Assembly (NCBI GenBank): GCA_951406725.2 | Contig: OX597827.1 | Coordinates: forward strand, 48,732,001-48,796,000 | Reading direction: 5' to 3' | Length of the DNA stretch: 64,000 nt | DNA from: Octopus vulgaris | Lineage: Eukaryota | Shown: positions 210-50,969 of the stretch, one piece after another | How the letters are laid out: every line of letters begins with the position of its first letter | Position numbering within the stretch: position 1 is the first letter of the stretch | Position numbers and translations under genes: made by a program | The notes under the pieces: model-generated | What the model was told of the DNA's origin: nothing | Seen by the model: only the letters and a program-made list of their open reading frames with translations | Database searches by the model: none

Positions 210-213
<4 letters not shown>

Positions 214-856
214 GATCAAAATAAAAACATGATGCGAAGGATTCAGCGGTACATATGTTTCGGGCCTTTATTAGACAGATTTATAACAATGCATAATGTA
301 TGTCTGTGGCCTTCTTCAGCCGCGCACAACAGCTTCCACAAGGACATGTGTTACATCAGAAATTCTTGGTTGGGGATGCAAATCCTCCCATTCGCGTACG
401 ACATAATGCGGCAGCAGCATAGAATTGAAGCGTCCATCTCTTTCTTCTCTCAATGTAGGATGAGGAAAAATGGATGTTGAAGTAATGTAAATAAATAAAT
501 ACATGTATATACGTGAAGATGGGCGAGAATTCAGGACGAGGGATAAAAAATGTATAAAAAGTGTAAGTATAGAAGAATATAAAAATGTAGAGCATAAAGA
601 TATAAAGAGATATAAGGAGATGTAAAGGGGGTATAAAGAATATAAAGAAATATAAAGAAATATAAATAAATGTAAAGGCATAAGGTTATAAAGTAAAACT
701 AGAAATAGAAATAAAAATAAAAGTAAAAAAACATGATAAAAATGTAACAAAATATAAAAAAATATAAAGATAAGGGATGTATAGAGGTTAAGGACCAAGC
801 ATGGTGGTCAGGAGATTGATAAAATTTAGTTGTAGAATTGTCAGTAAATCAACAGT
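210..856 (-). repeat. Inverted copy of PLE 3' terminal repeat (647 bp)
   Basis: Position x pairs with 4444-x, with only a few mismatches. Confidence 0.95.
246..323 (-). ncRNA. Type I hammerhead ribozyme (PLE pLTR, inverted copy)
   Basis: Reverse complement of the motif at 4121-4198. Confidence 0.8.
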
Positions 857-2299
857 CTATACAGAGACGACGCTCTCTTCATATACCCCACCAACAATAG
901 GAGTAAACTAGAAAGAATTAGGAAAAAGATCAGGCTTTTTTTCAAATCCTTCAATCTTAAACTAGAATTTATGACCAATACTAAAATAGTAAACTTCTTA
1001 GATGTTACGTTAGACCTGAATAAGCACCTTCACCACCCGTATAGGAAACCCGAAGAAACTACCAAATACATCCATACCTCTTCCAACCATCCACCCTGTA
1101 TAATTAGCACCACAGTCCAAGCCATCTCAGACAGACTGACAAAACTATCCTCTAATAGAGAAATTTTCAATAATCACGCACAACACTACAACCAGGCTCT
1201 CTATAGTGCCGGGTATAACCAGAGAATATCATATGTAGACTACCCGGGAGCGTCCGTCTGCCATAAAACTTCCAATTATAATCGAACTCAGCACTCAACT
1301 CACACTAGCGATAATTCTAATTTAAACTCCAAACAACGTATAGGAAATAGGCGAACTAATAGAATAGCACACAATAGTAACCCTCCCGACGAGAACAATA
1401 TAGATCCTATTAGGAGAAATAGAAGGGATAATAGATTACGCAAATACATATGGTTCAACTTACCTTACAACTTAGCAGTTAGGGGTAAGTTATGTAAGAG
1501 AATATTCTCTATCATTTCCAACAACTTCCCACCCACCCACAAGTATAGAAGTATCTTCTCCAACAAAACCATTAGGATTTCCTACTCTACCCTGCCCAAC
1601 ATGAGCTGCCTCATAGCTAAACATAACTATATTAATATTAGAACAGCTAGATCAAGAGCAAACCATAGCGACCAACAGAACCCCCCTCATCTAGACAGTA
1701 GACAATATAACCAGACTGGCAGCCATACTACCCAAACAGTTAGTAATAACTCCCGCCAACACAACAGAGGAAATACTACACCCATCAACAACCAGGAGGA
1801 TATCAACGCCCCCACTCGTATTGCAACACCTCCGCCTGGGATTAGTAGCACACGACCGAATAATGCAATGCAATGCAACTGCAGATGTGCATCAGAGTGC
1901 CCGCTGCAGGGCGCATGACGGGCGAAAAACGTAATATATTCATGTGAGGTGAGTACCCAGTTTAACACACTCACCTATATTGGTTGCTCAACCTCCTGGA
2001 AATCCAGATACTACAACCACCGGTCCTCGCTGAGACACAGACATAAGGCTAACAGCACCTCCCTTTCTAAAAGAATTTGGGAATTAAAAGACAAATGTAT
2101 AGGCTTCAAACTCAGATGGTCCATCATCGGATCAGCTGCACCTTATTTAAATAATAGAGCAGGATGCCAACTATGTTGTGTAGAACTCCTGAACATCTTG
2201 AAATTCAAAGACAAACACAATCTTATTAACAAAAGGTCAGAGTTCAAACCATCCTGTATACACAAACTTATTAATACTTTCAAATACTACAAAGCTTAG
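857..2299 (+). pseudogene. Penelope RT/GIY-YIG endonuclease ORF, 5'-truncated, one in-frame stop
   Basis: One frame reads LYRDDALF..RIRKKI..KIVNFLDVTLDL..PYRKP..YIHTSSNHPP..IWFNLPY..CNCR..CPLQGA*(TGA 1916-1918)RAKNVIY..TYIG..WKSRYYNH..LSKRIWELK..CQLC..E..LINKRSE..CIH. Joins track ORFs 971-1918 and 1949-2299. Confidence 0.92.
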
Positions 2300-3587
2300 G
2301 TTTTATACCAACTCCCCCATGCAATTTCCTCCCACCCGGTGCAACCTGTCGGCTCCAGCACATCCCGCTTTCCTATATGTGCGTGTATATGCGTATGCGT
2401 GTGTGTATGTATATGTATGCGCACATATGTGTACGTATATGTACATATATATATATATATATATATATGTGCGTGTGTGTGTGTGTGTGTGGGTGTGTGT
2501 ATGTGCATATATGTTTCCCTGCATTTTCCTCCTATATATACAAATTTTGTCTCCCATACATGACTTCTTTTCCCTAAATATTTCTTCTCCTACACCCATA
2601 TCCTTCCTATATAGTCTCTTTACTTCCCTATATCTATACCCTTTCACATTTCTAACTCGGATGTTGAACGCACACCGCCAAACTCCACTTCCCACCCTTC
2701 CAATTTTTCAGTTCCCCCCGCCCGCCCCTACGTGGACACTTTTAACACACACCTCTAACTTTCAACCACATTCATCTCATGTTGAATTATATTTTTATCT
2801 TATTTTATTTTATTTTATTTTTACTCTTATTCTACTTCCATTTATTCTCATTTTCATTTTCATCCCTTACCTTAACTCTTATAATTTTTATAATTTTTAT
2901 ATTTCATTTCTAACTATTACATTGTATTTCTTATTTTATACTGTATTTCTTACTTTTATTTCTAATTTTTACCCTTACCCTCATTCTTACCCCTAACTTA
3001 TCGCTTTACATCTCTATATATGTTTATTTACTTACCTATAGATCCACTTTTGACTATGCAAGCGTCCGTGTACGTATGTATACGCATACATACATAGACG
3101 CGCGCATATATGTACATGCATATTTTGATATCTTATAGCTATACCCATATGTCTCTGTGTGTGTGTGTAGGTGTATGTGTGCACGCACATACGTACACAC
3201 AGCCGTGTGTGCGTGCACGCATAGACGTGATTCCTTTAATATCTTATATCTAGACCTGGAAGCGTGAGCATATGCGTGTGTGTATGTAGTGATGAGCGCG
3301 CGTATGTACATGTGAGTGTGTACACGTATAGTGTCCGTGTATACATGCGGATATTCTGTTGTATGTATGTATATGTACGCACGTGCGTGTGGGTGTGTGT
3401 GTGTTTATATGAATGTTTACACGCGAGTGCGTGTGTATGCTTATAGGCTTGGAGGCGTATATGTACGCGTGTATATGGGTGTGTGTATCCATGTTGGATA
3501 TGTATGTACTAGAAGTCCAAATAATTCAAGGAACCAGATTAAACGCTCAACAGCTCTGATTTACAACGCATTAGGTCCCCAGACGAA

Positions 3588-4234
3588 ACTGTTGATTTAC
3601 TGACAATTCTACAACTAAATTTTATCAATCTCCTGACCACCATGCTTGGTCCTTAACCTCTATACATCCCTTATCTTTATATTTTTTTATATTTTGTTAC
3701 ATTTTTATCATGTTTTTTTACTTTTATTTTTATTTCTATTTCTATTTTTACTTTATAACCTTATGCCTTTACATTTATTTATATTTCTTTATATTTCTTT
3801 ATATTCTTTATACCCCCTTTACATCTCCTTATATCTCTTTATATATTTATGCTCTACATTTTTATATTTTTCTATACTTACACTTTTTATACATTTTTTA
3901 TCCCTCGTCCTGAATTCTCGCCCATCTTCACGTATATACATGTATTTATTTATTTACATTACTTCAACATCCATTTTTCCTCATCCTACATTGAGAGAAG
4001 AAAGAGATGGACGCTTCAATTCTATGCTGCTGCCGCATTATGTCGTACGCGAATGGGAGGATTTGCATCCCCAACCAAGAATTTCTGATGTAACACATGT
4101 CCTTGTGGAAGCTGTTGTGCGCGGCTGAAGAAGGCCACAGACATACATTATGCATTGTTATAAATCTGTCTAATAAAGGCCCGAAACATATGTACCGCTG
4201 AATCCTTCGCATCATGTTTTTATTTTGATCAATT
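3588..4234 (+). repeat. PLE 3' terminal repeat (pLTR) region
   Basis: Reverse complement of 210-856, contains the hammerhead. Confidence 0.95.
4121..4198 (+). ncRNA. Type I hammerhead ribozyme (PLE pLTR)
   Basis: GCGG-CTGAAGA-AGGCC..GGCCC-GAAA-CATATG-TA-CCGC. Stem I GCGG/CCGC, palindromic stem III, predicted cleavage after GUA at 4194. Confidence 0.82.
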
Positions 4235-4328
4235 TACTCCACCACCTACACCACCAAACGGTATACACAGGTGCTTATAATTATCAAGTACTCACCCCGA
4301 ATTTCTATATATATATATATATATATAT

Positions 4329-13010: not shown

Positions 13011-13092
13011 GATGAGGTGGCCGAGTGGTTAAGGCGACGGACAGCTAATCCGTTGGGATATACCCTCGTGAGTTCGTATCTCATCCTCGTCG
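13011..13092 (+). tRNA. tRNA-Ser(GCT), probably a pseudogene or variant
   Basis: 82-nt cloverleaf: acceptor GATGAGG/CCTCGTC, D-arm TGGCCGAGTGGTTAAGGC, stem ACGGA/TCCGT around GCT (13044-46), long variable arm, T-arm GTGAG-TTCGTAT-CTCAT. Invariant U33 is A and A58 is T. Confidence 0.85.
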
Positions 13093-13544: not shown

Positions 13545-13582
<38 letters not shown>

Positions 13583-13595
13583 AAAATATATATAT

Positions 13596-13655
<60 letters not shown>

Positions 13656-13775
13656 ACAATCAAGGAACGGCCATAATAGGCCATTCACCCACTAGAAATA
13701 ACAGCCAAAAGCTTTAACCGCAAAATAACGTCAATTCCGTAAACCAGGAGAAAATTGAAAAACATTTACCCTGTA

Positions 13776-13882
13776 ATTTCTTAGACGATGCACCGTTTCA
13801 TCTTCTGTTTAATGGAAAACTAACCTGATTAAATTAAATCAACCCAATCTACCATAGGCCCTTAGATTCATCAGTAAGAAAT
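13776..13882 (-). ncRNA. Type I hammerhead ribozyme, array copy 1
   Basis: ATTTCTTA-CTGATGA-ATCT..AGAT-GAAA-CGGTGCATCG-TC-TAAGAAAT on the minus strand. Confidence 0.9.
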
Positions 13883-14271
13883 AGCCAAACCGGAACAGAT
13901 ATTTTTCACGAGGCATTCTCATTGCTACCTCGTCAATATCTGACCTAAAATTTTCAAATCGTCGCACTCGCGCCAAATTTATCGGCAGCAAATAAATATA
14001 AGCCGCCGATTCCATTACGGAATTAACCAGAAAATTCATAATTAATCAATATAGGGTGGCAAAAAAAAAAAATTTTGTAGAATTCTTTTGCCACCAGCGG
14101 CCTAGTGGGAAAAAATTAAATAGTCATAAACCATTTTTAAGTTCAACATCAACAATCAAGGAACGGCCATAATAGGCCATTCACCCACTAGAAATAACAG
14201 CCAAAAGCTTTAACCGCAAAATAACGTCAATTCCGTAAACCAGGAGAAAATTGAAAAACATTTACCCTGTA

Positions 14272-14378
14272 ATTTCTTAGATGATGCACCGTTTCATCTT
14301 CTGTTTAATGGAAAACTAACCTGATTAAATTAAATCAAGCCAATCTACCATAGGCCCTTAGATTCATCAGTAAGAAAT
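14272..14378 (-). ncRNA. Type I hammerhead ribozyme, array copy 2 (GUC to AUC variant)
   Basis: Same motif, but the substitution at 14282 breaks a stem III C-G pair. Confidence 0.8.
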
Positions 14379-14765
14379 AGCCAAACCGGAACAGATATTT
14401 TTCACGAGGCATTCTCATTGCTACCTCGTCAATATCTGACATAAAATTTTGAAATCGTCGCACTCGCGCCAAATTTATCGGCAGCAAATAAATATAAGCC
14501 GCCGATTCCATTACGGAATTAACCAGAAAATTCATAATTAATCAATATAGGGTGGCAAAAAAAAAATTTTGTAGAATTCTTTTGCCACCAGCGGCCTAGT
14601 GGGAAAAAATTAAATAGTCATAAACCATTTTTAAGTTCAACATCAACAATCAAGGAACGGCCATAATAGGCCATTCACCCACTAGAAATAACAGCCAAAA
14701 GCTTTAACCGCAAAATAACGTCAATTCCGTAAACCAGGAGAAAATTGAAAAACATTTACCCTGTA

Positions 14766-14872
14766 ATTTCTTAGACGATGCACCGTTTCATCTTCTGTTT
14801 AATGGAAAACTAACCTGATTAAATTAAATCAAGCCAATCTACCATAGGCCCTTAGATTCATCAGTAAGAAAT
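14766..14872 (-). ncRNA. Type I hammerhead ribozyme, array copy 3
   Basis: Intact core and stems. Confidence 0.9.
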
Positions 14873-15258
14873 AGCCAAACCGGAACAGATATTTTTCACG
14901 AGGCATTCTCATTGCTACCTCGTCAATATCTGACCTAAAATTTTCAAATCGTCGCACTCGCGCCAAATTTATCGGCAGCAAATAAATATAAGCCGCCGAT
15001 TCCATTACGGAATTAACCAGAAAATTCATAATTAATCAATATAGGGTGGCAAAAAAAAATTTTGTAGAATTCTTTTGCCACCAGCGGCCTAGTGGGAAAA
15101 AATTAAATAGTCATAAACCATTTTTAAGTTCAACATCAACAATCAAGGAACGGCCATAATAGGCCATTCACCCACTAGAAATAACAGCCAAAAGCTTTAA
15201 CCGCAAAATAACGTCAATTCCGTAAACCAGGAGAAAATTGAAAAACATTTACCCTGTA

Positions 15259-15365
15259 ATTTCTTAGACGATGCACCGTTTCATCTTCTGTTTAATGGAA
15301 AACTAACCTGATTAAATTAAATCAAGCCAATCTACCATAGGCCCTTAGATTCATCAGTAAGAAAT
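15259..15365 (-). ncRNA. Type I hammerhead ribozyme, array copy 4
   Basis: Intact core and stems. Confidence 0.9.
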
Positions 15366-15749
15366 AGCCAAACCGGAACAGATATTTTTCACGAGGCATT
15401 CTCATTGCTACCTCGTCAATATCTGACCTAAAATTGTCAAATCGTCGCACTCGCGCCAAAGTTATCGGCAGCAAATAAATATAAGCCGCCGATTCCATTA
15501 CGGAATTAACCAGAAAATTCATAATTAATCAATATAGGGTGGCAAAAAAATTTTGTAGAATTCTTTTGCCACCAGCGGCCTAGTGGGAAAAAATTAAATA
15601 GTCATAAACCATTTTTAAGTTCAACATCAACAATCAAGGAACGGCCATAATAGGCCACTCACCCACTAGAAATAACAGCCAAAAGCTTTAACCGCAAAAT
15701 AACGTCAATTCCGTAAACCAGGAGAAAATTGAAAAACATTTACCCTGTA

Positions 15750-15856
15750 ATTTCTTAGACGATGCACCGTTTCATCTTCTGTTTAATGGAAAACTAACCT
15801 GATTAAATTAAATCAAGCCAATCTACCATAGGCCCTTAGATTCATCAGTAAGAAAT
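15750..15856 (-). ncRNA. Type I hammerhead ribozyme, array copy 5
   Basis: Intact core and stems. Confidence 0.9.
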
Positions 15857-16243
15857 AGCCAAACCGGAACAGATATTTTTCACGAGGGATTCTCATTGCT
15901 ACCTCGTCAATATCTGACCTAAAATTTTCAAATCGTCGCACTCGCGCCAAATTTATCGGCAGCAAATAAATATAAGCCGCCGATTCCATTACGGAATTAA
16001 CCAGAAATTCATAATTAATCAATATAGGGTGGCAAAAAAAAAAATTTTGTAGAATTCTTTTGCCACCAGCGGCCTAGTGGGAAAAAATTAAATAGTCATA
16101 AACCATTTTTAAGTTCAACATCAACAATCAAGGAACGGCCATAATAGGCCATTCACCCACTAGAAATAACAGCCAAAAGCTTTAACCGCAAAATAACGTC
16201 AATTCCGTAAACCAGGAGAAAATTGAAAAACATTTACCCTGTA

Positions 16244-16350
16244 ATTTCTTAGACGATGCACCGTTTCATCTTCTGTTTAATGGAAAACTAACCTGATTAA
16301 ATTAAATCAAGCCAATCTACCATAGGCCCTTAGATTCATCAGTAAGAAAT
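16244..16350 (-). ncRNA. Type I hammerhead ribozyme, array copy 6
   Basis: Intact core and stems. Confidence 0.9.
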
Positions 16351-16734
16351 AGCCAAACCGGAACAGATATTTTTCACCAGGCATTCTCATTGCTACCTCG
16401 TCAATATCTGACCTAAAATTTTCAAATCGTCGCACTCGCGCCAAATTTATCGGCAGCAAATAAATATAAGCCGCCGATTCCATTACGGAATTAACCAGAA
16501 AATTCATAATTAATCAATATAGGGTGGCAAAAAAATTTTGTAGAATTCTTTTGCCACCAGCGGCCTAGTGGGAAAAAATTAAATAGTCATAAACCATTTT
16601 TAAGTTCAACATCAACAATCAAGGAACGGCCATAATAGGCCATTCACCCACTAGAAATAACAGCCAAAAGCTTTAACCGCAAAATAACGTCAATTCCGTA
16701 AACCAGGAGAAAATTGAAAAACATTTACCCTGTA

Positions 16735-16841
16735 ATTTCTTAGACGATGCACCGTTTCATCTTCTGTTTAATGGAAAACTAACCTGATTAAATTAAATCA
16801 AGCCAATCTACCATAGGCCCTTAGATTCATCAGTAAGAAAT
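16735..16841 (-). ncRNA. Type I hammerhead ribozyme, array copy 7
   Basis: Intact core and stems. Confidence 0.9.
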
Positions 16842-17227
16842 AGCCAAACCGGAACAGATATTTTTCACGAGGCATTCTCATTGCTACCTCGTCAATATCT
16901 GACCTAAAATTTTCAAATCGTCGCACTCGCGCCAAATTTATCGGCAGCAAATAAATATAAGCCGCCGATTCCATTACGGAATTAACCAGAAAATTCATAA
17001 TTAATCAATATAGGGTGGCAAAAAAAAATTTTGTAGAATTCTTTTGCCACCAGCGGCCTAGTGGGAAAAAATTAAATAGTCATAAACCATTTTTAAGTTC
17101 AACATCAACAATCAAGGAACGGCCATAATAGGCCATTCACCCACTAGAAATAACAGCCAAAAGCTTTAACCGCAAAATAACGTCAATTCCGTAAACCAGG
17201 AGAAAATTGAAAAACATTTACCCTGTA

Positions 17228-17334
17228 ATTTCTTAGACGATGCACCGTTTCATCTTCTGTTTAATGGAAAACTAACCTGATTAAATTAAATCAACCCAAT
17301 CTACCATAGGCCCTTAGATTCATCAGTAAGAAAT
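17228..17334 (-). ncRNA. Type I hammerhead ribozyme, array copy 8
   Basis: Intact core and stems. Confidence 0.9.
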
Positions 17335-18000
17335 AGCCAAACCGGAACAGATATTTTTCACGAGGCATTCTCATTGCTACCTCGTCAATATCTGACATAA
17401 AATTTTCAAATCGTCGCACTCGCGCCAAATTTATCGGCAGCAAATAAATATAAGCCGACGATTCCATTAAGTAATTAACCAGAACATTCATAATTAATCA
17501 ATATAGGGTGCCAAAAAAAATTTTGTAGAATTCTTTTGCCACCAGCGGCCTAGTGGGAAAAAATTAAATAGTCATAAACCATTTTTAAGTTCAACATCAA
17601 CAATCAAGGAACGGCCATAATAGGCCATTCACCCACTAGAAATAACAGCCAAAAGCTTTAACCGCAAAATAACGTCAATTCCGTAAACCAGGAGAAAATT
17701 GAAAAACATTTACCCTGTAATTTCTTAGACGATGCACCGTTTCATCTTCTGTTTAATGGAAAACTAACCTGATTAAATTAAATCAAGCCAATCTACCATA
17801 GGCCCTACAAAATTTTTTTTTTGCCACCCTATATTGATTAATTATGAATTTTCTGGTTAATTCCGTAATGGAATCGGCGGCTTATATTTATTTGCTGCCG
17901 ATAAATTTGGCGCGAGTGCGACGATTTGAAAATTTTAGGTCAGATATTGACGAGGTAGCAATGAGAATGCCTGGTGAAAAATATCTGTTCCGGTTTGGCT

Positions 18001-18107
18001 ATTTCTTACTGATGAATCTAAGGGCCTATGGTAGATTGGCTTGATTTAATTTAATCAGGTTAGTTTTCCATTAAACAGAAGATGAAACGGTGCATCGTCT
18101 AAGAAAT
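18001..18107 (+). ncRNA. Type I hammerhead ribozyme, array copy 9
   Basis: Stem I 18001-08/18100-07, CTGATGA 18009-15, stem II ATCT/AGAT, GAAA 18084-87, predicted cleavage after GUC at 18099. Confidence 0.92.
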
Positions 18108-18492
18108 TACAGGGTAAATGTTTTTCAATTTTCTCCTGGTTTACGGAATTGACGTTATTTTGCGGTTAAAGCTTTTGGCTGTTATTTCTAGTGGGTGAAT
18201 GGCCTATTATGGCCGTTCCTTGATTGTTGATGTTGAACTTAAAAATGGTTTATGACTATTTAATTTTTTCCCACTAGGCCGCTGGTGGCAAAAGAATTCT
18301 ATAAAATTTTTTTTGCCACCCTATATTGATTAATTATGAATTTTCTGGTTAATTCCGTAATGGAATCGGCGGCTTATATTTATTTGCTGCCGATAAATTT
18401 GGCGCGAGTGCGACGATTTGAAAATTTTAGGTTAGATATTGACGAGGTAGCAATGAGAATGCCTCGTGAAAAATATCTGTTCCGGTTTGGCT

Positions 18493-18599
18493 ATTTCTTA
18501 CTGATGAATCTAAGGGCCTATGGTAGATTGGCTTGATTTAATTTAATCAGGTTAGTTTTCCATTAAACAGAAGATGAAACGGTGCATCGTCTAAGAAAT
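18493..18599 (+). ncRNA. Type I hammerhead ribozyme, array copy 10
   Basis: Intact, predicted cleavage after 18591. Confidence 0.92.
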
Positions 18600-18985
18600 T
18601 ACAGGGTAAATGTTTTTCAATTTTCTCCTGGTTTACGGAATTGACGTTATTTTGCGGTTAAAGCTTTTGGCTGTTATTTCTAGTGGGTGAATGGCCTATT
18701 ATGGCCGTTCCTTGATTGTTGATGTTGAACTTAAAAATGGTTTATGACTATTTAATTTTTTCCCACTAGGCCGCTGGTGGCAAAAGAATTCTACAAATTT
18801 TTTTTTTGCCACCCTATATTGATTAATTATGAATTTTCTGGTTAATTCCGTAATGGAATCGGCGGCTTATATTTATTTGCTGCCGATAAATTTGGCGCGA
18901 GTGCGACGATTTGAAAATTTTAGTTCAGATATTGACGAGGTAGCAATGAGAATGCCTCGTGAAAAATATCTGTTCCGGTTTGGCT

Positions 18986-19092
18986 ATTTCTTACTGATGA
19001 ATCTAAGGGCCTATGGTAGATTGGCTTGATTTAATTTAATCAGGTTAGTTTTCCATTAAACAGAAGATGAAACGGTGCATCGTCTAAGAAAT
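18986..19092 (+). ncRNA. Type I hammerhead ribozyme, array copy 11
   Basis: Intact, predicted cleavage after 19084. Confidence 0.92.
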
Positions 19093-19347
19093 TACAGGGT
19101 AAATGTTTTTCAATTTTCTCCTGGTTTACGGAATTGACGTTATTTTGCGGTTAAAGCTTTTGGCTGTTATTTCTAGTGGGTGAATGGCCTATTATGGCCG
19201 TTCCTTGATTGTTGATGTTGAACTTAAAAATGGTTTATGACTATTTAATTTTTTCCCACTAGGCCGCTGGTGGCAAAAGAATTCTACAAATTTTTTTTTT
19301 TTGCCACCCTATATTGATTAAATATATATATATATATATATACATAC

Positions 19348-19378
<31 letters not shown>

Positions 19379-19379
19379 C

Positions 19380-19424
<45 letters not shown>

Positions 19425-45975: not shown

Positions 45976-47112
45976 AGATACTCTATCTTCTAATTAGCCT
46001 TAAGATTAAATTAAATAACGTTTAATATTGATACCGTCAAATTAGCCTTAGGATTAAATTAAATAACGTTTAATATAGTTTAATATTGTTAATAATTATT
46101 GTTAATTAGCCTTAAGATTAAATTAAATAACGTTTAATATTGTTTTAATATTGTTAATAATTTTTCAGATACTCTATCTTCTAATTAGCCTTAAGATTAA
46201 ATTAAATAACGTTTAATATTGTTAATAATTATTGTTAATTAGCCTTAGGATTAAATTAAATAACGTTTAATATTGTTTAATATTGTTAATAATTACTGTT
46301 AATTAGCCTTAAGATTAAATTAAATAACGTTTAATATTGTCTAATATTGTTAATAATTATTGTTAATTAGCCTTAAGATTAAATTAAATAACGTTTAATA
46401 TTGTTTAATATTGTTAATAATTATTGTTAATTAGCCTTAAGATTAAATTAAATAACGTTTAATATTGTTTTAATATTGTTAATACTTCTTCAGATACTCT
46501 ATCTTCTAATTAGCCTTAAGATTAAATTAAATAACGTTTAATATTACCCACACTCTAATATAATATTAACATTGCTAATATATTTTCAGATACTCTATCT
46601 CCTGATTAGCCTTAAGATTAAATAACGTTTTTATCCACACTCTAATATAATATTAATATTGCTAATATATTTTCAGATACTCTATCTTCTAATTAGCCTT
46701 AAGATTAAATTAAATAACGTTTAATATTAATAACGTCTAATTAGCCTTAACATTAAATTAAATAACGGTTAATATTGCTTAATATTGTATATATAATTTT
46801 TCAGATACTCTGTCTTCTAATTAGCCTTAAGATTAAATTAAATAACGTTTAATATTACCCACACTCTAATATAATATTAATATTGCTAATATATTTTCAG
46901 ATACTCTATCTCCAAATTAGCCTTAAGATTAAATAACGTTTTTTTACCCACACTCTAATATAATATTAATATTGCTAATATATTTTCAGATACTCTATCT
47001 CCTAATTAGCCTTAAGATTAAATAACGTTTTTACCCAAATAACGTTTTTACACAAACTTTAATATTGTTAATATTTCTTTTTCAAGTACTCTATCTTCTA
47101 ATTAGCCTTAAT
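45976..47112. repeat. Modular AT-rich minisatellite upstream of LINE ORF1
   Basis: Recurrent AATTAGCCTTAAGATTAAATTAAATAACGTTT core interspersed with CAGATACTCTATCT and CCACACTCTAATATAATATT modules. Confidence 0.9.
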
Positions 47113-47172
47113 ATCTTCCTGTCTTCTCTCGAACATAATTAGATAGATAAACGGATAGACGGATTATCCAGC

Positions 47173-47889
47173 ATGTCCAGAGCATGGAGACGTGACGAGC
47201 TGGATTTATTCGTACGAGCATGGGAGTGCGCCGGCGGAGATAGCCCTAGCGAGGTGATTGCGGCTGCGCTGAAGAGCAGAGGCTACAAGAGGACAGCGGC
47301 TCAGATGGAGCGAAAGAGACAGGAATTCGTGCGCTCATATGCGCTTGTACGGTCGCACATTGGCGCACTTGATGCCATCTTTGAGAACGAGCGGGGCAAA
47401 GATGGCAAGAATGGAGACGATGAAAGAAGTCACCCCCACCTGGTGGACGCCCAGGAGGAGGTTTTGAATGAGAAACCTGCCCGGGAAGTGAACCCAGGTG
47501 CAAGTTCTCCAACCGGCAGCAAGGGCCATGGAGACGGAGAACCCGGTGAAGAGGTAGAGGGAGGAAGAAAAACTAAAAGAAGGACTGGAAGAGCTAAAGG
47601 AAAAGAAAAAGCTCAAGCAGGACCAAAGAGTGAAACAACCAGGAGTAGAAGTGGAACCGCAAAGGATGGAACCAAACAGCGCACACGGGTGTGTATGTCC
47701 TACCTGAGAGGTTCCTGCTGGACACGGAAAGGAAGGTGCAGGCTGCCGCTTTGCACATCGGGGACCCTGCCACAGAGACACGAGGCAGATGGACAAACCA
47801 TCAACACAAAGAAAAGGGATGGACTACGCACCACCTGCCCCAAAGCGGAGGTACGCAGATGTTGTGCGCGCCACAAACAGCCAACATGA
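47173..47889 (+). CDS. LINE ORF1: Myb/SANT-like (trihelix) domain plus CCCH zinc finger, probably frameshifted near 47722
   Basis: WRRDELDLFVRAW..IAAALKSRGYKRTAAQMERK..Y pattern. Removing one A at 47722 gives CMSYLRGSCWHGKEGAGCRFAH. Confidence 0.7.
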   Translation: MSRAWRRDELDLFVRAWECAGGDSPSEVIAAALKSRGYKRTAAQMERKRQEFVRSYALVRSHIGALDAIFENERGKDGKNGDDERSHPHLVDAQEEVLNEKPAREVNPGASSPTGSKGHGDGEPGEEVEGGRKTKRRTGRAKGKEKAQAGPKSETTRSRSGTAKDGTKQRTRVCMSYLRGSCWTRKGRCRLPLCTSGTLPQRHEADGQTINTKKRDGLRTTCPKAEVRRCCARHKQPT

Positions 47890-50800
47890 TGTTGTCGAAA
47901 GAGCAGCTGCTGAGCAACAATCTTTTTGTGCATGGCACAAAAGATTGTACAGCAGCTGACCTGGCTTCATCAAACCCAAGCCCGCAGGTGGGACTACCCA
48001 CTATATACCAGACCACCACAGCAAACAGACACAGGATGGACACCGCCGGCAACAACGTACACCTCACCTCGATACTCCTACTGAACATCAGAGGACTGCA
48101 AACACTCAGTAACAGGACAAAGATCCCGTTCCTGAGAGACTTTGTTGCATGCAATCAAGCCTTATGCATAGCACTTACAGAAACGCACCTGAAACCGGAC
48201 ATAGCAGATGCGGAGTTACACATACCACAGTATGCTGTACTACGGACCGACAGGAAAGAAAGGAGTCATGGAGGTGTTGCTATGTACATCCGTGAGGACC
48301 TCACACCCCAGGTCCTCTTGTCATACTCAAACTCGGTGTGTGACACACTAATTGTACATATTAGGCAACTTGATGTAGTTGTGTGTGCTACATATCGCCC
48401 TCCAGATGCCCCAAGCCATGTGGGCAAGTTCGAAGACTGCCTTATAAAAATAGAAGAAATTCTAACCACATTAGAACAACACATAGGTGTGCTTCTTATG
48501 GGAGACTTCAATCTGCCCAATGTCAGATGGCCCGAGGGCCTTTCTCTCCCAGGAATGACAAGATGGGAACGAGGACAGGCGAGGTCCCTCCTGAACCTCA
48601 TCAACACCCTGTACATGGAGCAGGTAATACTCCAACCAACCAGGGCAGGTAACACACTGGATCTCTGCTTCACAAATGACATGGATCTCATCCATAATGT
48701 GAAAGTGACACCGACACTACTCTCGGATCACAACATGATAGAGCTGACCATGTACGGGCCAAAAGAGAGCACGGACATGCAGCCTACAAGAAACCCTCAA
48801 AATCTTTCCAGCTTGAACTACCATAAGGCAAACTGGAAACAAATTGAGAAAGAGATCCTCAAACAAAACTGGCCTGAATGTCTCTCCTCGCCAGACATCG
48901 ACGTGAAACTTCAACAATTCATGTCTGTAATGCAAGCCATATGCTACAAATGTGTCCCAGAGAGAAAGGCCACTGTACACAAGAACAAAATCCCCAGAGA
49001 GAGGAAAATTTTAATGAGACGGCGTACGAAATTTTCAAATCGCCTAAACAAACAGATTGAAAGCAGTGAAAAGTCCCGCCTAAAAATAAAACTGTTGGAA
49101 ATCGAAAAATGTCTGCAACTCTCCCATGAAAAAGAAAGAGCAGACAAAGAAGCCTGGGCTATAGAAAACATAAAATCTAACCCCAGAGCTTTCTACAGGT
49201 ATGCCAAAGAAACAGCTACAGTGCACTGTAGAATAGGGCCACTCCTTGAAAAGGATGGCACACTTACAGGAAAACCAATGAGGGTAAGTGAAATACTGAA
49301 TGAGCAATTCAAGAGTGTTTTCACTCCACCCCTTGGGCATCTCCAAATCACCAATCCAACTGACTTTTTTACCACTGCAGATATAAAATCAGAGGCGGCG
49401 ACGATAGATTACATCGATATAAAGGAAGACGATGTAACCAAGGCTATAGATGAAATGAAAACAGACTCAGCTACTGGCCCCGATGGATTCCCGGCAATCC
49501 TCCTAAAAGCATGTAAGAGAGTCCTAGCAAGACCACTGCAGTTCCTCTTTCAGAGCTTCCTTGCAGCTGGCAAACTTCCAGGAAAACTGAAGGAAGGTAA
49601 AATATGCCCCATTCATAAAGGAGGTAGCAGAGCGGAAGCCAAGAACTATAGACCTATCTCTCTGACCTCACACATCAGCAAGGTCATGGAACGAATAGTC
49701 AGAAGGAAGCTGATTACCTTCCTTGAAGAGAATGACTTGCTGCCCGACACCCAACATGGTTTCCGACCAGGGAGAAGCTGTTTAACTCAGCTCCTACAAC
49801 ACTATGACTGGGTGCTGAAACGGCTGCTCAACCACTCAAATGTGGAAGTGATATATCTCGACTTTGCAAAGGCCTTTGATAAAGTCGATCATGGAATGAT
49901 ATGTCACAAACTGCGTGATCTCAACATAGTTGGAAAACTGGGAGAATGGCTTCATGACTTTCTGAAGGATAGAAGTCAGGTGGTAGTAGCCAATGGGGCC
50001 ACCTCCATTAACACACAAATAGTGAGCGGTGTTCCGCAGGGCACTGTTCTGGGACCACTACTGTTCATAATGGCCCTCTCAGACATGCCCTCAGCCACGC
50101 AGAGAGCCACGATCACAAGTTATGCAGATGATACAAAAGTCTCACAGGCAATACAGAACCCTGAGGACACTAAACACCTGCAATGTGAGCTGGACGAAAT
50201 ATACAAGTGGGCTGAAAAGAATAGCATGCAGTTCAATGCTGGAAAGTTTCAAGCTTTATACTATCAGCATGCAAAACTGAATGCAATACCCAATGAATAC
50301 ACTGGACCCGGAGGGATTGCAATCCCAGAGGCACAATCAGTGCGTGACCTGGGTATTCACATGAGTGATGACGCGACCTTTCATGTACATGTTGCTAAAC
50401 TGACAATGAAATGTAGACGGCTGGCTGGATGGATTCTTAGAACCTTTAGAACAAGAGAACAAGAAACCATGATGGTCCTCTGGAAGACACTTGTCCTAAG
50501 CCACTTTGACTATTGCTCTCAGCTATGGTCACCATCCAGTGTCAAGTTGATCACAGAACTTGAGGCGATCCAACGAAGCTACACAAAGAAGATAGCCTCT
50601 ATGCAGAATGTAAGCTACTGGGAAAGACTCAAGAGATTAAAATTATATTCCCTGGAGCGTAGGCGGGAAAGATATGCCATAATATACATCTGGAAGATCC
50701 TGGAGGGAAGTGTCCTGAACTTTGGCATCGAGAGTTACGCAAATGCCAGAACTGGGCGCCACTGCGTGGTGCCTAGGACTCCAAACCTGCCATCAAGATG

Positions 50801-50969
50801 TAGGACAAGATTCTGTGATAGCCTGGGCTTCCGAGGCCCACAGCTCTTCAATATCCTCCCGAAGAACCTGAGAGACCTGCATGGGGTGGATACAGATGTC
50901 TTTAAAATGAAGCTGGATCTCTTCCTGTCAGGTGTCCCAGATGAACCAACTTCACGGCAGGAGGGGTAG
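47691..50969 (+). CDS. LINE ORF2: APE endonuclease + reverse transcriptase (true start likely ATG near 47887 or 48036)
   Basis: NIRGL, LTETHL, GGV, YRPP, GDFN, TLDL, SDHN, then GPDG, NYRPISL, QHGFR, LDFAKAFDKVDH, GVPQGTVLGP, YADD, DLG, YCSQLWSP, LYSLERRR. Uninterrupted frame. Confidence 0.96.
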   Translation: MYVLPERFLLDTERKVQAAALHIGDPATETRGRWTNHQHKEKGWTTHHLPQSGGTQMLCAPQTANMMLSKEQLLSNNLFVHGTKDCTAADLASSNPSPQVGLPTIYQTTTANRHRMDTAGNNVHLTSILLLNIRGLQTLSNRTKIPFLRDFVACNQALCIALTETHLKPDIADAELHIPQYAVLRTDRKERSHGGVAMYIREDLTPQVLLSYSNSVCDTLIVHIRQLDVVVCATYRPPDAPSHVGKFEDCLIKIEEILTTLEQHIGVLLMGDFNLPNVRWPEGLSLPGMTRWERGQARSLLNLINTLYMEQVILQPTRAGNTLDLCFTNDMDLIHNVKVTPTLLSDHNMIELTMYGPKESTDMQPTRNPQNLSSLNYHKANWKQIEKEILKQNWPECLSSPDIDVKLQQFMSVMQAICYKCVPERKATVHKNKIPRERKILMRRRTKFSNRLNKQIESSEKSRLKIKLLEIEKCLQLSHEKERADKEAWAIENIKSNPRAFYRYAKETATVHCRIGPLLEKDGTLTGKPMRVSEILNEQFKSVFTPPLGHLQITNPTDFFTTADIKSEAATIDYIDIKEDDVTKAIDEMKTDSATGPDGFPAILLKACKRVLARPLQFLFQSFLAAGKLPGKLKEGKICPIHKGGSRAEAKNYRPISLTSHISKVMERIVRRKLITFLEENDLLPDTQHGFRPGRSCLTQLLQHYDWVLKRLLNHSNVEVIYLDFAKAFDKVDHGMICHKLRDLNIVGKLGEWLHDFLKDRSQVVVANGATSINTQIVSGVPQGTVLGPLLFIMALSDMPSATQRATITSYADDTKVSQAIQNPEDTKHLQCELDEIYKWAEKNSMQFNAGKFQALYYQHAKLNAIPNEYTGPGGIAIPEAQSVRDLGIHMSDDATFHVHVAKLTMKCRRLAGWILRTFRTREQETMMVLWKTLVLSHFDYCSQLWSPSSVKLITELEAIQRSYTKKIASMQNVSYWERLKRLKLYSLERRRERYAIIYIWKILEGSVLNFGIESYANARTGRHCVVPRTPNLPSRCRTRFCDSLGFRGPQLFNILPKNLRDLHGVDTDVFKMKLDLFLSGVPDEPTSRQEG

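Follow-up and report, generated by a model that had tools for sequence, protein, structure and literature searches.

A hammerhead retrozyme family in Octopus vulgaris whose two-armed tandem insertions carry a Penelope-like footprint and suggest a probable circular RNA template

How does a short non-coding repeat come to stand as two tandem arrays in opposite orientation at a single place in an animal genome? The question is raised by a 64,000-nt stretch of Octopus vulgaris DNA (contig OX597827.1, 48,732,001 to 48,796,000; hereafter the window), in which an earlier note had described about 11.5 hammerhead-bearing 493-bp units as a ribozyme satellite and candidate retrozyme. Tandem Repeats Finder (TRF) resolved two 493-bp arrays with 98% matches, at 13652-17806 (8.4 copies) and 17805-19325 (3.1 copies), opposite in orientation and bounded by (TA)n tracts at 13545-13653 and 19322-19422. 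The left arm (minus strand, 8.43 units) and the right arm (plus strand, 3.09 units) meet head to head at 17805..17806 with a microhomology of 2 nt, as placed by arm mapping; the junction and the two target tracts were given no strand. All phases and + positions are counted with the first base 3′ of the ribozyme cut as phase 1. The left arm has its outer 3′ end at +132 (the 'short' end) and its inner 5′ end at phase 415; the right arm has its inner 5′ end at phase 200 and its outer 3′ end at 236-239 (the 'long' end), where it merges into the TA tract. The earlier note had seen the two orientations and missed their status as the key feature. We consider it probable that the unit is a non-long terminal repeat (non-LTR) retrozyme copied by a Penelope-like element (PLE) of the Hydra clade, through rolling reverse transcription (RT) of a monomer circle from both nicked strands of the target.

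A motif search bore out the 11 complete type I hammerheads proposed earlier, eight on the minus and three on the plus strand, together with monomers of 491-496 nt. In the first plus-strand copy (18001..18107), stem I pairs 18001-8 with 18100-7, the core occupies 18009-15, stem II pairs 18016-19 with 18080-83 around a 59-nt insert, and GAA (18084-86) and a palindromic stem III (18087-98) lead to a predicted cut after 18099. The second (18493..18599) and third (18986..19092) have their cuts after 18591 and 19084. The eight minus-strand hammerheads lie within 13776..17334, with 5′ ends at 17334, 16841, 16350, 15856, 15365, 14872, 14378 and 13882. The copy starting at 14378 (C17 at 14280) reads AUC and has its 15.2-16.2 pair broken, and a twelfth cut site, at 17728, lacks the CUGAUGA half because the arm is 5′-truncated there. 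The term 'canonical hammerhead' went too far: stem II opens with A-U and carries the 59-nt insert, and stem III is a 12-nt palindrome. With no G10.1-C11.1, no short loop 2 and no stable monomer stem III in the window's subfamily (A, see below), the unit falls outside the canonical monomeric type I class. Rfam, which the earlier note had named as a check, gave no hammerhead match in the window at gathering thresholds, probably because of the stem II insert. Genome-wide, the hammerhead pattern gave 2103 matches against 0 for a reversed control, so that chance is no explanation. Across 194-207 copies the ten invariant core positions are unaltered, U16.1 is changed in 1 of 210, and N7 takes all four bases.

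The genome searched comprises 2.8 Gb. A first search with the unit gave 1205 candidates, of which 40 were scored, and the 40 loci studied here (the window and 39 others) are the best-scoring ones. A 24-base stem-II motif has 2811 exact matches; the first 100 in order of position fall into 38 loci, which extrapolates to about 1070 loci with a mean of 2.6 matches each. The word 'satellite' was therefore misplaced: these are about 1070 dispersed short insertions instead of long head-to-tail arrays at few loci. By sequence, the subfamilies number at least four. Subfamily A is that of the window; B is about 92% identical (213 motif matches), C is 89% identical with a unit of 485 nt (149 matches), and D is 76-88% identical (89 matches). 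Insertions also occur side by side or next to other elements: at L033 a B and an A insertion are adjacent, nested in one TA tract, and at L168/L189 a subfamily C array sits in the TA flank of a coding PLE. The recent amplification suggested by the earlier note is supported by the clonal units, among them the six identical 485-nt units of L189.

The window monomers, measured from cut to cut, are 0-10 substitutions apart and have a GC content of about 0.36, under the ceiling of 45-50% used for non-LTR retrozymes. No element open reading frame (ORF) was found within the unit, the longest ATG ORF having 66 aa, a length reached by 173 of 1000 circular shuffles; nor was an ORF for RT plus GIY-YIG found within the unit or attached to the 40 loci. 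Compared with shuffles, the monomer at 18592..19084 (plus strand, 493 nt), our predicted circle, folds with a z of -5.3 when linear, and its sister unit at 16743-17235 with -5.6 when circular. Circular folds gave -5.6 (A), -3.4 (B) and -7.1 (C) with 25 shuffles each, and the antisense likewise -3.6 to -4.3. In ribozyme, coding content, GC and predicted folding, the unit conforms to the sequence definition of a metazoan non-LTR retrozyme. It is neither an autonomous PLE nor classical satellite DNA. With one hammerhead per unit, the genome-wide matches, no coding capacity and a structured monomer, the retrozyme identity first put forward by the note is supported. The 66-codon frame (window 18336-18536 and its repeats) starts at the long end. 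It was considered as a coding sequence, being kept through a compensated frameshift in B and C, and rejected: besides the shuffles that equal its length, the ORF or its start is lost in 25 of 110 listed monomers, and no look-alike in the Atlas scored above 0.81.

The two-armed anatomy recurs across the family. The 40 loci comprise 31 simple head-to-head pairs, five one-armed and four compound insertions. Outer ends fall into two narrow classes, +128-134 (short) and +232-239 (long), and each of the 34 classifiable arm pairs (the 31 simple loci, two pairs of L033 and one of L041) combines a short with a long end, with no short/short or long/long pair. The same two ends are found in subfamilies B and D, and contigs of the public sequencing runs X7 and X10 have TA loose ends at both phases. 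Among the first 100 position-ordered motif matches, the loci with two orientations are head to head in 14 of 14 cases, in a motif-based list that is blind to short arms devoid of the stem-II motif. (TA)n adjoins both outer ends in 39 of 40 loci, judged by eye, and in TA tracts any target-site duplication would be unreadable. Between the fixed ends (phase 132-239) lies a 'tail' of about 105 nt (19216..19323 in the window, plus strand), both ends of which are in segments predicted to be largely unpaired. Inner ends, by comparison, are scattered: their phases are near uniform (n=77, Kolmogorov-Smirnov p=0.053), 1 of 77 lies in phases 1-25, and they are joined with overlaps of 0-8 nt or short fillers. 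The longest arm seen has 10.5 units.

This arm anatomy is a Penelope footprint. In the coding PLEs of the same genome, too, the arms face each other head to head, the two ends are staggered past the element's own hammerhead, and the target is (TA)n. Among the motifs of their proteins are DKT, CxCX5C and RWK (or a variant of the last), which mark the Hydra clade according to PMC8557442 (alignment excerpts, by eye). The Penelope-like helper suggested earlier is thus supported by the fixed paired ends, the head-to-head arms and the (TA)n targets, and the family is very probably mobilised by PLEs. Which PLE family would serve is a narrower matter. We compared the unit with six families, those with open frames of 842, 778 (745-778), 727 and 718 aa and the types L177 and L178/L179. 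In searches of those PLE loci (word size 7) and of 840 kb of array-masked DNA, no match outside the retrozyme family was better than E=0.03. None of the six resembles the unit, so the helper is assigned to the Hydra clade by clade and footprint only. The earlier note had also considered that the unit might be the pseudo-LTR (pLTR) of a coding PLE; this was not seen in the six families, which make up a small part of the PLE places of the genome.

One of these families has a member in the window. At 211-4308 lies a 5′-truncated Hydra-clade PLE with an inverted 5′ copy, set in (TA)n and interrupted by one in-frame stop (1916-1918); its own hammerhead has a palindromic stem III and a cut after 4194, and the inverted copy has its cut at 250. 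Pfam gave no match for two pieces of its ORF. This family has 17,447 candidate places, open frames of up to 842 aa, and ends near +40 and +112 to +127; we use it as a comparator and assign it no helper role. A second family ends near +47 and +204 past its own hammerhead. The tails of two PLE families here measure about 75 and about 155 nt. A second search gave 57,283 candidate PLE places and 727-aa frames that are identical in 3 of 3 copies. These frames belong to a very young Hydra-clade family (L186, L187 and L191, e.g. C1:194225300-194232299), identical at several sites, with full-length partial tandems and a small hammerhead upstream of the ORF. A short motif near the long end looked, by eye, to be shared in two PLE families. 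The array at L168 was examined as a possible part of the neighbouring PLE and rejected: a TA tract lies between them, the array is unlike the termini of that PLE, and it is a separate insertion.

Compensatory changes over the four subfamilies preserve both the ribozyme and its palindromic stem III, so that it probably cuts as a dimer. Stem I shows double changes in C and D. The fifth stem II pair is G-C or A-U in most subfamilies and a mismatch in that of the window. Subfamilies A, B and C and 6 of 7 D copies all have a 12-nt stem III that is self-complementary (self-duplex, -13.6 to -18.8 kcal/mol), and a double change in it hits the two central bases, which are unpaired in the monomer and relevant only in the dimer. 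In monomers, the pairing probability of stem III is about 0 in subfamily A and high in C. For a two-unit transcript, the cost above the minimum free energy is 1.6 kcal/mol for the double hammerhead, 8.9 for a single one and 13.4 for two singles. In these models the ribozyme would probably act mainly as a dimer of adjacent units. That dimer-only cleavage would spare monomer circles is an existing idea (PMC4209133).

The length and the clonality of the arms bear on the template. Of 80 arms, 72 extend over one or more cut sites and 54 over two or more, which excludes a lone cut linear monomer as template and leaves a circle, an uncut multimer or template jumps. If RT were primed at +132 or +237 on such a monomer, only that many bases could be copied, so longer arms need another template. 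Leaving aside the T-tract at phases 204-220 and the pair of subfamily-B arms in L033, units differ per site by 0.0041 inside one arm, by 0.0039 from one arm of a locus to the other, and by 0.0106 from locus to locus. Variants at sites covered by at least three units comprise 62 that are locus-fixed (49 seen in both arms), 131 singletons and 24 that are partly shared. Ten variants that are fixed in a single locus occur in none of the 39 others, and haplotypes nest stepwise between loci. Family-level variants covered by both arms were in both in 48 cases and in one only in 27, mostly as single-unit recurrences. Copying from a monomer circle would produce just this, a passage through one unit and then regrowth as the copy inserts, and on balance we take such a circle to have been the usual template.

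We propose the following course of events. An array would be read through into multimeric RNA. Adjacent hammerheads would then pair via the palindromic stem III, cut as a double hammerhead and free monomers of 485-496 nt, a step suggested by structure and by selection in silico. Each monomer would be ligated to a circle that is stable as it has no partner hammerhead in cis, by analogy with coral, mussel and axolotl retrozymes. A PLE protein would nick both (TA)n strands and prime RT inside the RNA at about +132 and about +237; the fixed ends are observed, and we interpret them after Frangieh 2024. Each reverse transcriptase would circle the same template for a random length, and the far ends of the cDNAs would be joined by microhomology, producing a head-to-head pair of clonal tandem arrays; here anatomy and clonality are observed and the circle is the predicted part. 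Duplication and conversion would afterwards modify some arrays. In its fullest form, which we put forward tentatively and would not call probable, each insertion may be the fossil of one event: a dimeric Hydra-clade PLE enzyme would have nicked both strands of a (TA)n tract and run two rolling-circle RTs from two fixed internal sites on one viroid-sized RNA circle, kept closed by a ribozyme under selection for dimer-only cutting, and the retrozyme would be a sequence-independent, structure-mimicking parasite with at least four subfamilies that is still active. If true, it would prove from genomic data that an animal element retrotransposes from a circular template, would explain why PLEs at large occur as tandem and inverted copies, and would reveal a natural route to write tandem DNA from circular RNA.

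Several observations weigh against copying from a monomer circle after dimeric cleavage. A single pass round one monomer does not account for the 24 partly shared variants, which are spread over 12 loci: a block of two units is duplicated in L039, one variant alternates in L035, L044 is a mosaic, and the window has three such sites. The arms of L132 differ in haplotype (1 of 7 B loci compared). By hand count, 4 of 24 B arms and the long arm of the D copy L195 (phase 2) end within 25 nt of the cut, the pattern expected of a cut linear template. The sample of 40 loci is skewed to young, long arrays. The six PLE families include no unit-like helper, and their tails differ from that of the retrozyme in place and length. 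RNAalifold on A-C found double-change pairs in 0 of 140; the double changes described above stem from the hammerhead helices and subfamily D. Among published systems, PAc (Poseidon, Anolis) needed no hammerhead cleavage in vitro (PMC11167929), and 8 of 9 Xenopus retrozyme dimers failed to cleave (Li et al. 2026, bioRxiv 10.64898/2026.07.22.740005).

Some of these points would be explained if the same PLE-driven insertion had used an uncut linear multimer transcribed from an existing homogeneous array, the ribozyme acting late or rarely. PAc took unprocessed RNA in vitro (PMC11167929), and multi-unit templates fit the partly shared or alternating variants of L035, L039 and L044. However, internal priming and random truncation would shorten arrays in each generation, yet arms reach 10.5 units; the nested all-unit haplotypes, together with the 10 fixed variants private to one locus, imply that arrays passed again and again through a single unit and then regrew; and the ribozyme is maintained by compensatory change across about 20% divergence. 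We regard an uncut template as unlikely, if the most serious alternative. Template jumping, in which the reverse transcriptase reaches the 5′ end of a cut linear monomer, resumes at the 3′ end of that monomer or of a sister and so builds the tandem, would accommodate the arms that end at the cut in B and in L195, the discordant arms of L132 and mosaics such as L044. It is harder to reconcile with the single subfamily A inner end of 77 in phases 1-25, with the regular cut-to-cut spacing (491-496 nt for the window units and 485 nt in each of six L189 units) and with units of one locus that almost always form a single haplotype, and we judge it improbable. Short PLE-type insertions or solo pLTRs might also have grown later by unequal crossover or slippage, as Li et al. 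2026 propose; block duplications at L039 and a few other loci, and the many short copies, are of the kind expected. Singletons, however, outnumber partly shared variants by 131 to 24, in a star-like pattern, inverted arms are often both multi-unit with one haplotype, and the youngest arrays are long already (L189), which makes later growth a very unlikely origin. A last alternative, in which an unseen coding PLE has the unit as its pLTR or 5′ region or the inversion arises from long interspersed element (LINE) twin priming, gains some room from the 58 of 57,283 candidate PLE places scored and from a LINE ORF2 in the window, and is hardly credible given (TA)n on both sides without an attached ORF in 39 of 40 loci, the TA-separated array of L168 that is unlike the termini of its PLE neighbour, and two fixed ends where LINE twin priming yields a poly(A) end and a variable second end.

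With a monomer circle as the preferred template, the family can be set against known systems. It resembles metazoan non-LTR retrozymes (PMC7229834; PMC7761336; bioRxiv 10.64898/2026.07.22.740005) in its tandem units, which are non-coding and low in GC and contain a single type I hammerhead, in its structured monomer, in its thousands of copies with PLEs alongside, and in a ribozyme predicted to depend on dimers, as in axolotl. In contrast, the available parts of those reports describe head-to-tail repeats, with no two-armed insertion, paired fixed ends, (TA)n targeting, per-insertion clonality or cephalopod; circles are proven there, whereas that of the octopus unit is predicted only. Xenopus retrozyme units resemble pLTRs, while the octopus unit has no such match in the six PLE families. 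The accessible text of the 2026 preprint gives retrozyme families of 51-972 bp, samples no mollusc and proposes local growth by unequal crossover (bioRxiv 10.64898/2026.07.22.740005). The 493-nt unit, which the earlier note had thought unusually large, lies inside that range. Endonuclease-bearing (EN+) PLEs, including the Hydra clade, share 5′-truncated partial tandems, an inverted 5′ copy, a one-end tail, (TA)n and a hammerhead (PMC8557442), and Hydra and Naiad families with a (TA)n preference are given for Octopus in the supplement of that paper; the octopus unit differs in having no ORF, many full units per arm and a tail of about 105 nt versus the 30-40 nt usually cited. In PAc, too, RT begins at two sites past the hammerhead cut that agree with the genomic tail, both DNA strands are cut and extended, and the target is AT-rich; PAc differs in being autonomous and studied in vitro, and its authors favour an unprocessed multimer template (PMC11167929). 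Non-autonomous Chlamys elements such as MRC1 come from green algae, have 3′ ends like those of their autonomous partners and, in the portion available, no hammerhead is described for them (PMC8557442). Circle-templated, more-than-unit reverse transcription was itself proposed in 2014 (PMC4209133) and 2020 (PMC7229834).

Our literature search, which extended to neither Repbase, Dfam nor two supplement sets, found no retrozyme from a cephalopod and no clonal retrozyme insertions with two arms and fixed ends. The kind of element is known; what appears new is a two-armed clonal footprint that records the insertion mechanism unusually clearly. It bears on what mobilises animal retrozymes, and on how PLEs form tandem and inverted insertions and what role their hammerheads play. 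The 2024 in-vitro study favours uncut multimers and the 2026 preprint later unequal crossover, and about a thousand natural insertion records are able to discriminate these models. The family also supplies a substrate of 493 nt on which the two start sites are mapped, and the same genome has Hydra-clade ORFs that are young and intact.

In public sequencing runs, the unit sequence is present under at least three organism labels. Parts of the unit are covered by contigs of one RNA run and of three runs whose RNA nature is a guess, and strand, ends and circles are unreadable from such contigs. In run X20 the sequence is present as one piece of 208 nt, and in four listed runs of organism label A or C its share is 0.00. 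Contigs of X7, X8 and X10 (guessed RNA) hold variants of other subfamilies; of three motifs drawn from such contigs, one, a diverged stem-II hairpin variant, lacks an exact counterpart in the genome.

Elsewhere in the window, a tRNA-like sequence (13011-13092, Rfam 48 bits) lies immediately left of the array and is probably the head of a short interspersed element (SINE). The LINE ORF2 mentioned above is a 1106-codon open frame with endonuclease and RT (47649-50969), preceded by a frame at 47143-47889 with a weak Myb-like match. Upstream of this LINE is an AT-rich minisatellite (46040-47111) with periods of 64, 87-89 and 311. Finally, a relaxed stem-I pattern gave 18 matches in the genome, mostly deleted family copies together with an unrelated 401-bp hammerhead repeat. 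This repeat (L192:4236-4802; C9, about 98612400-98613000) is a partial tandem with a type I hammerhead, the same stem I and a palindromic stem III; it has no ORF, ends in (TA)n and probably represents a second retrozyme family.

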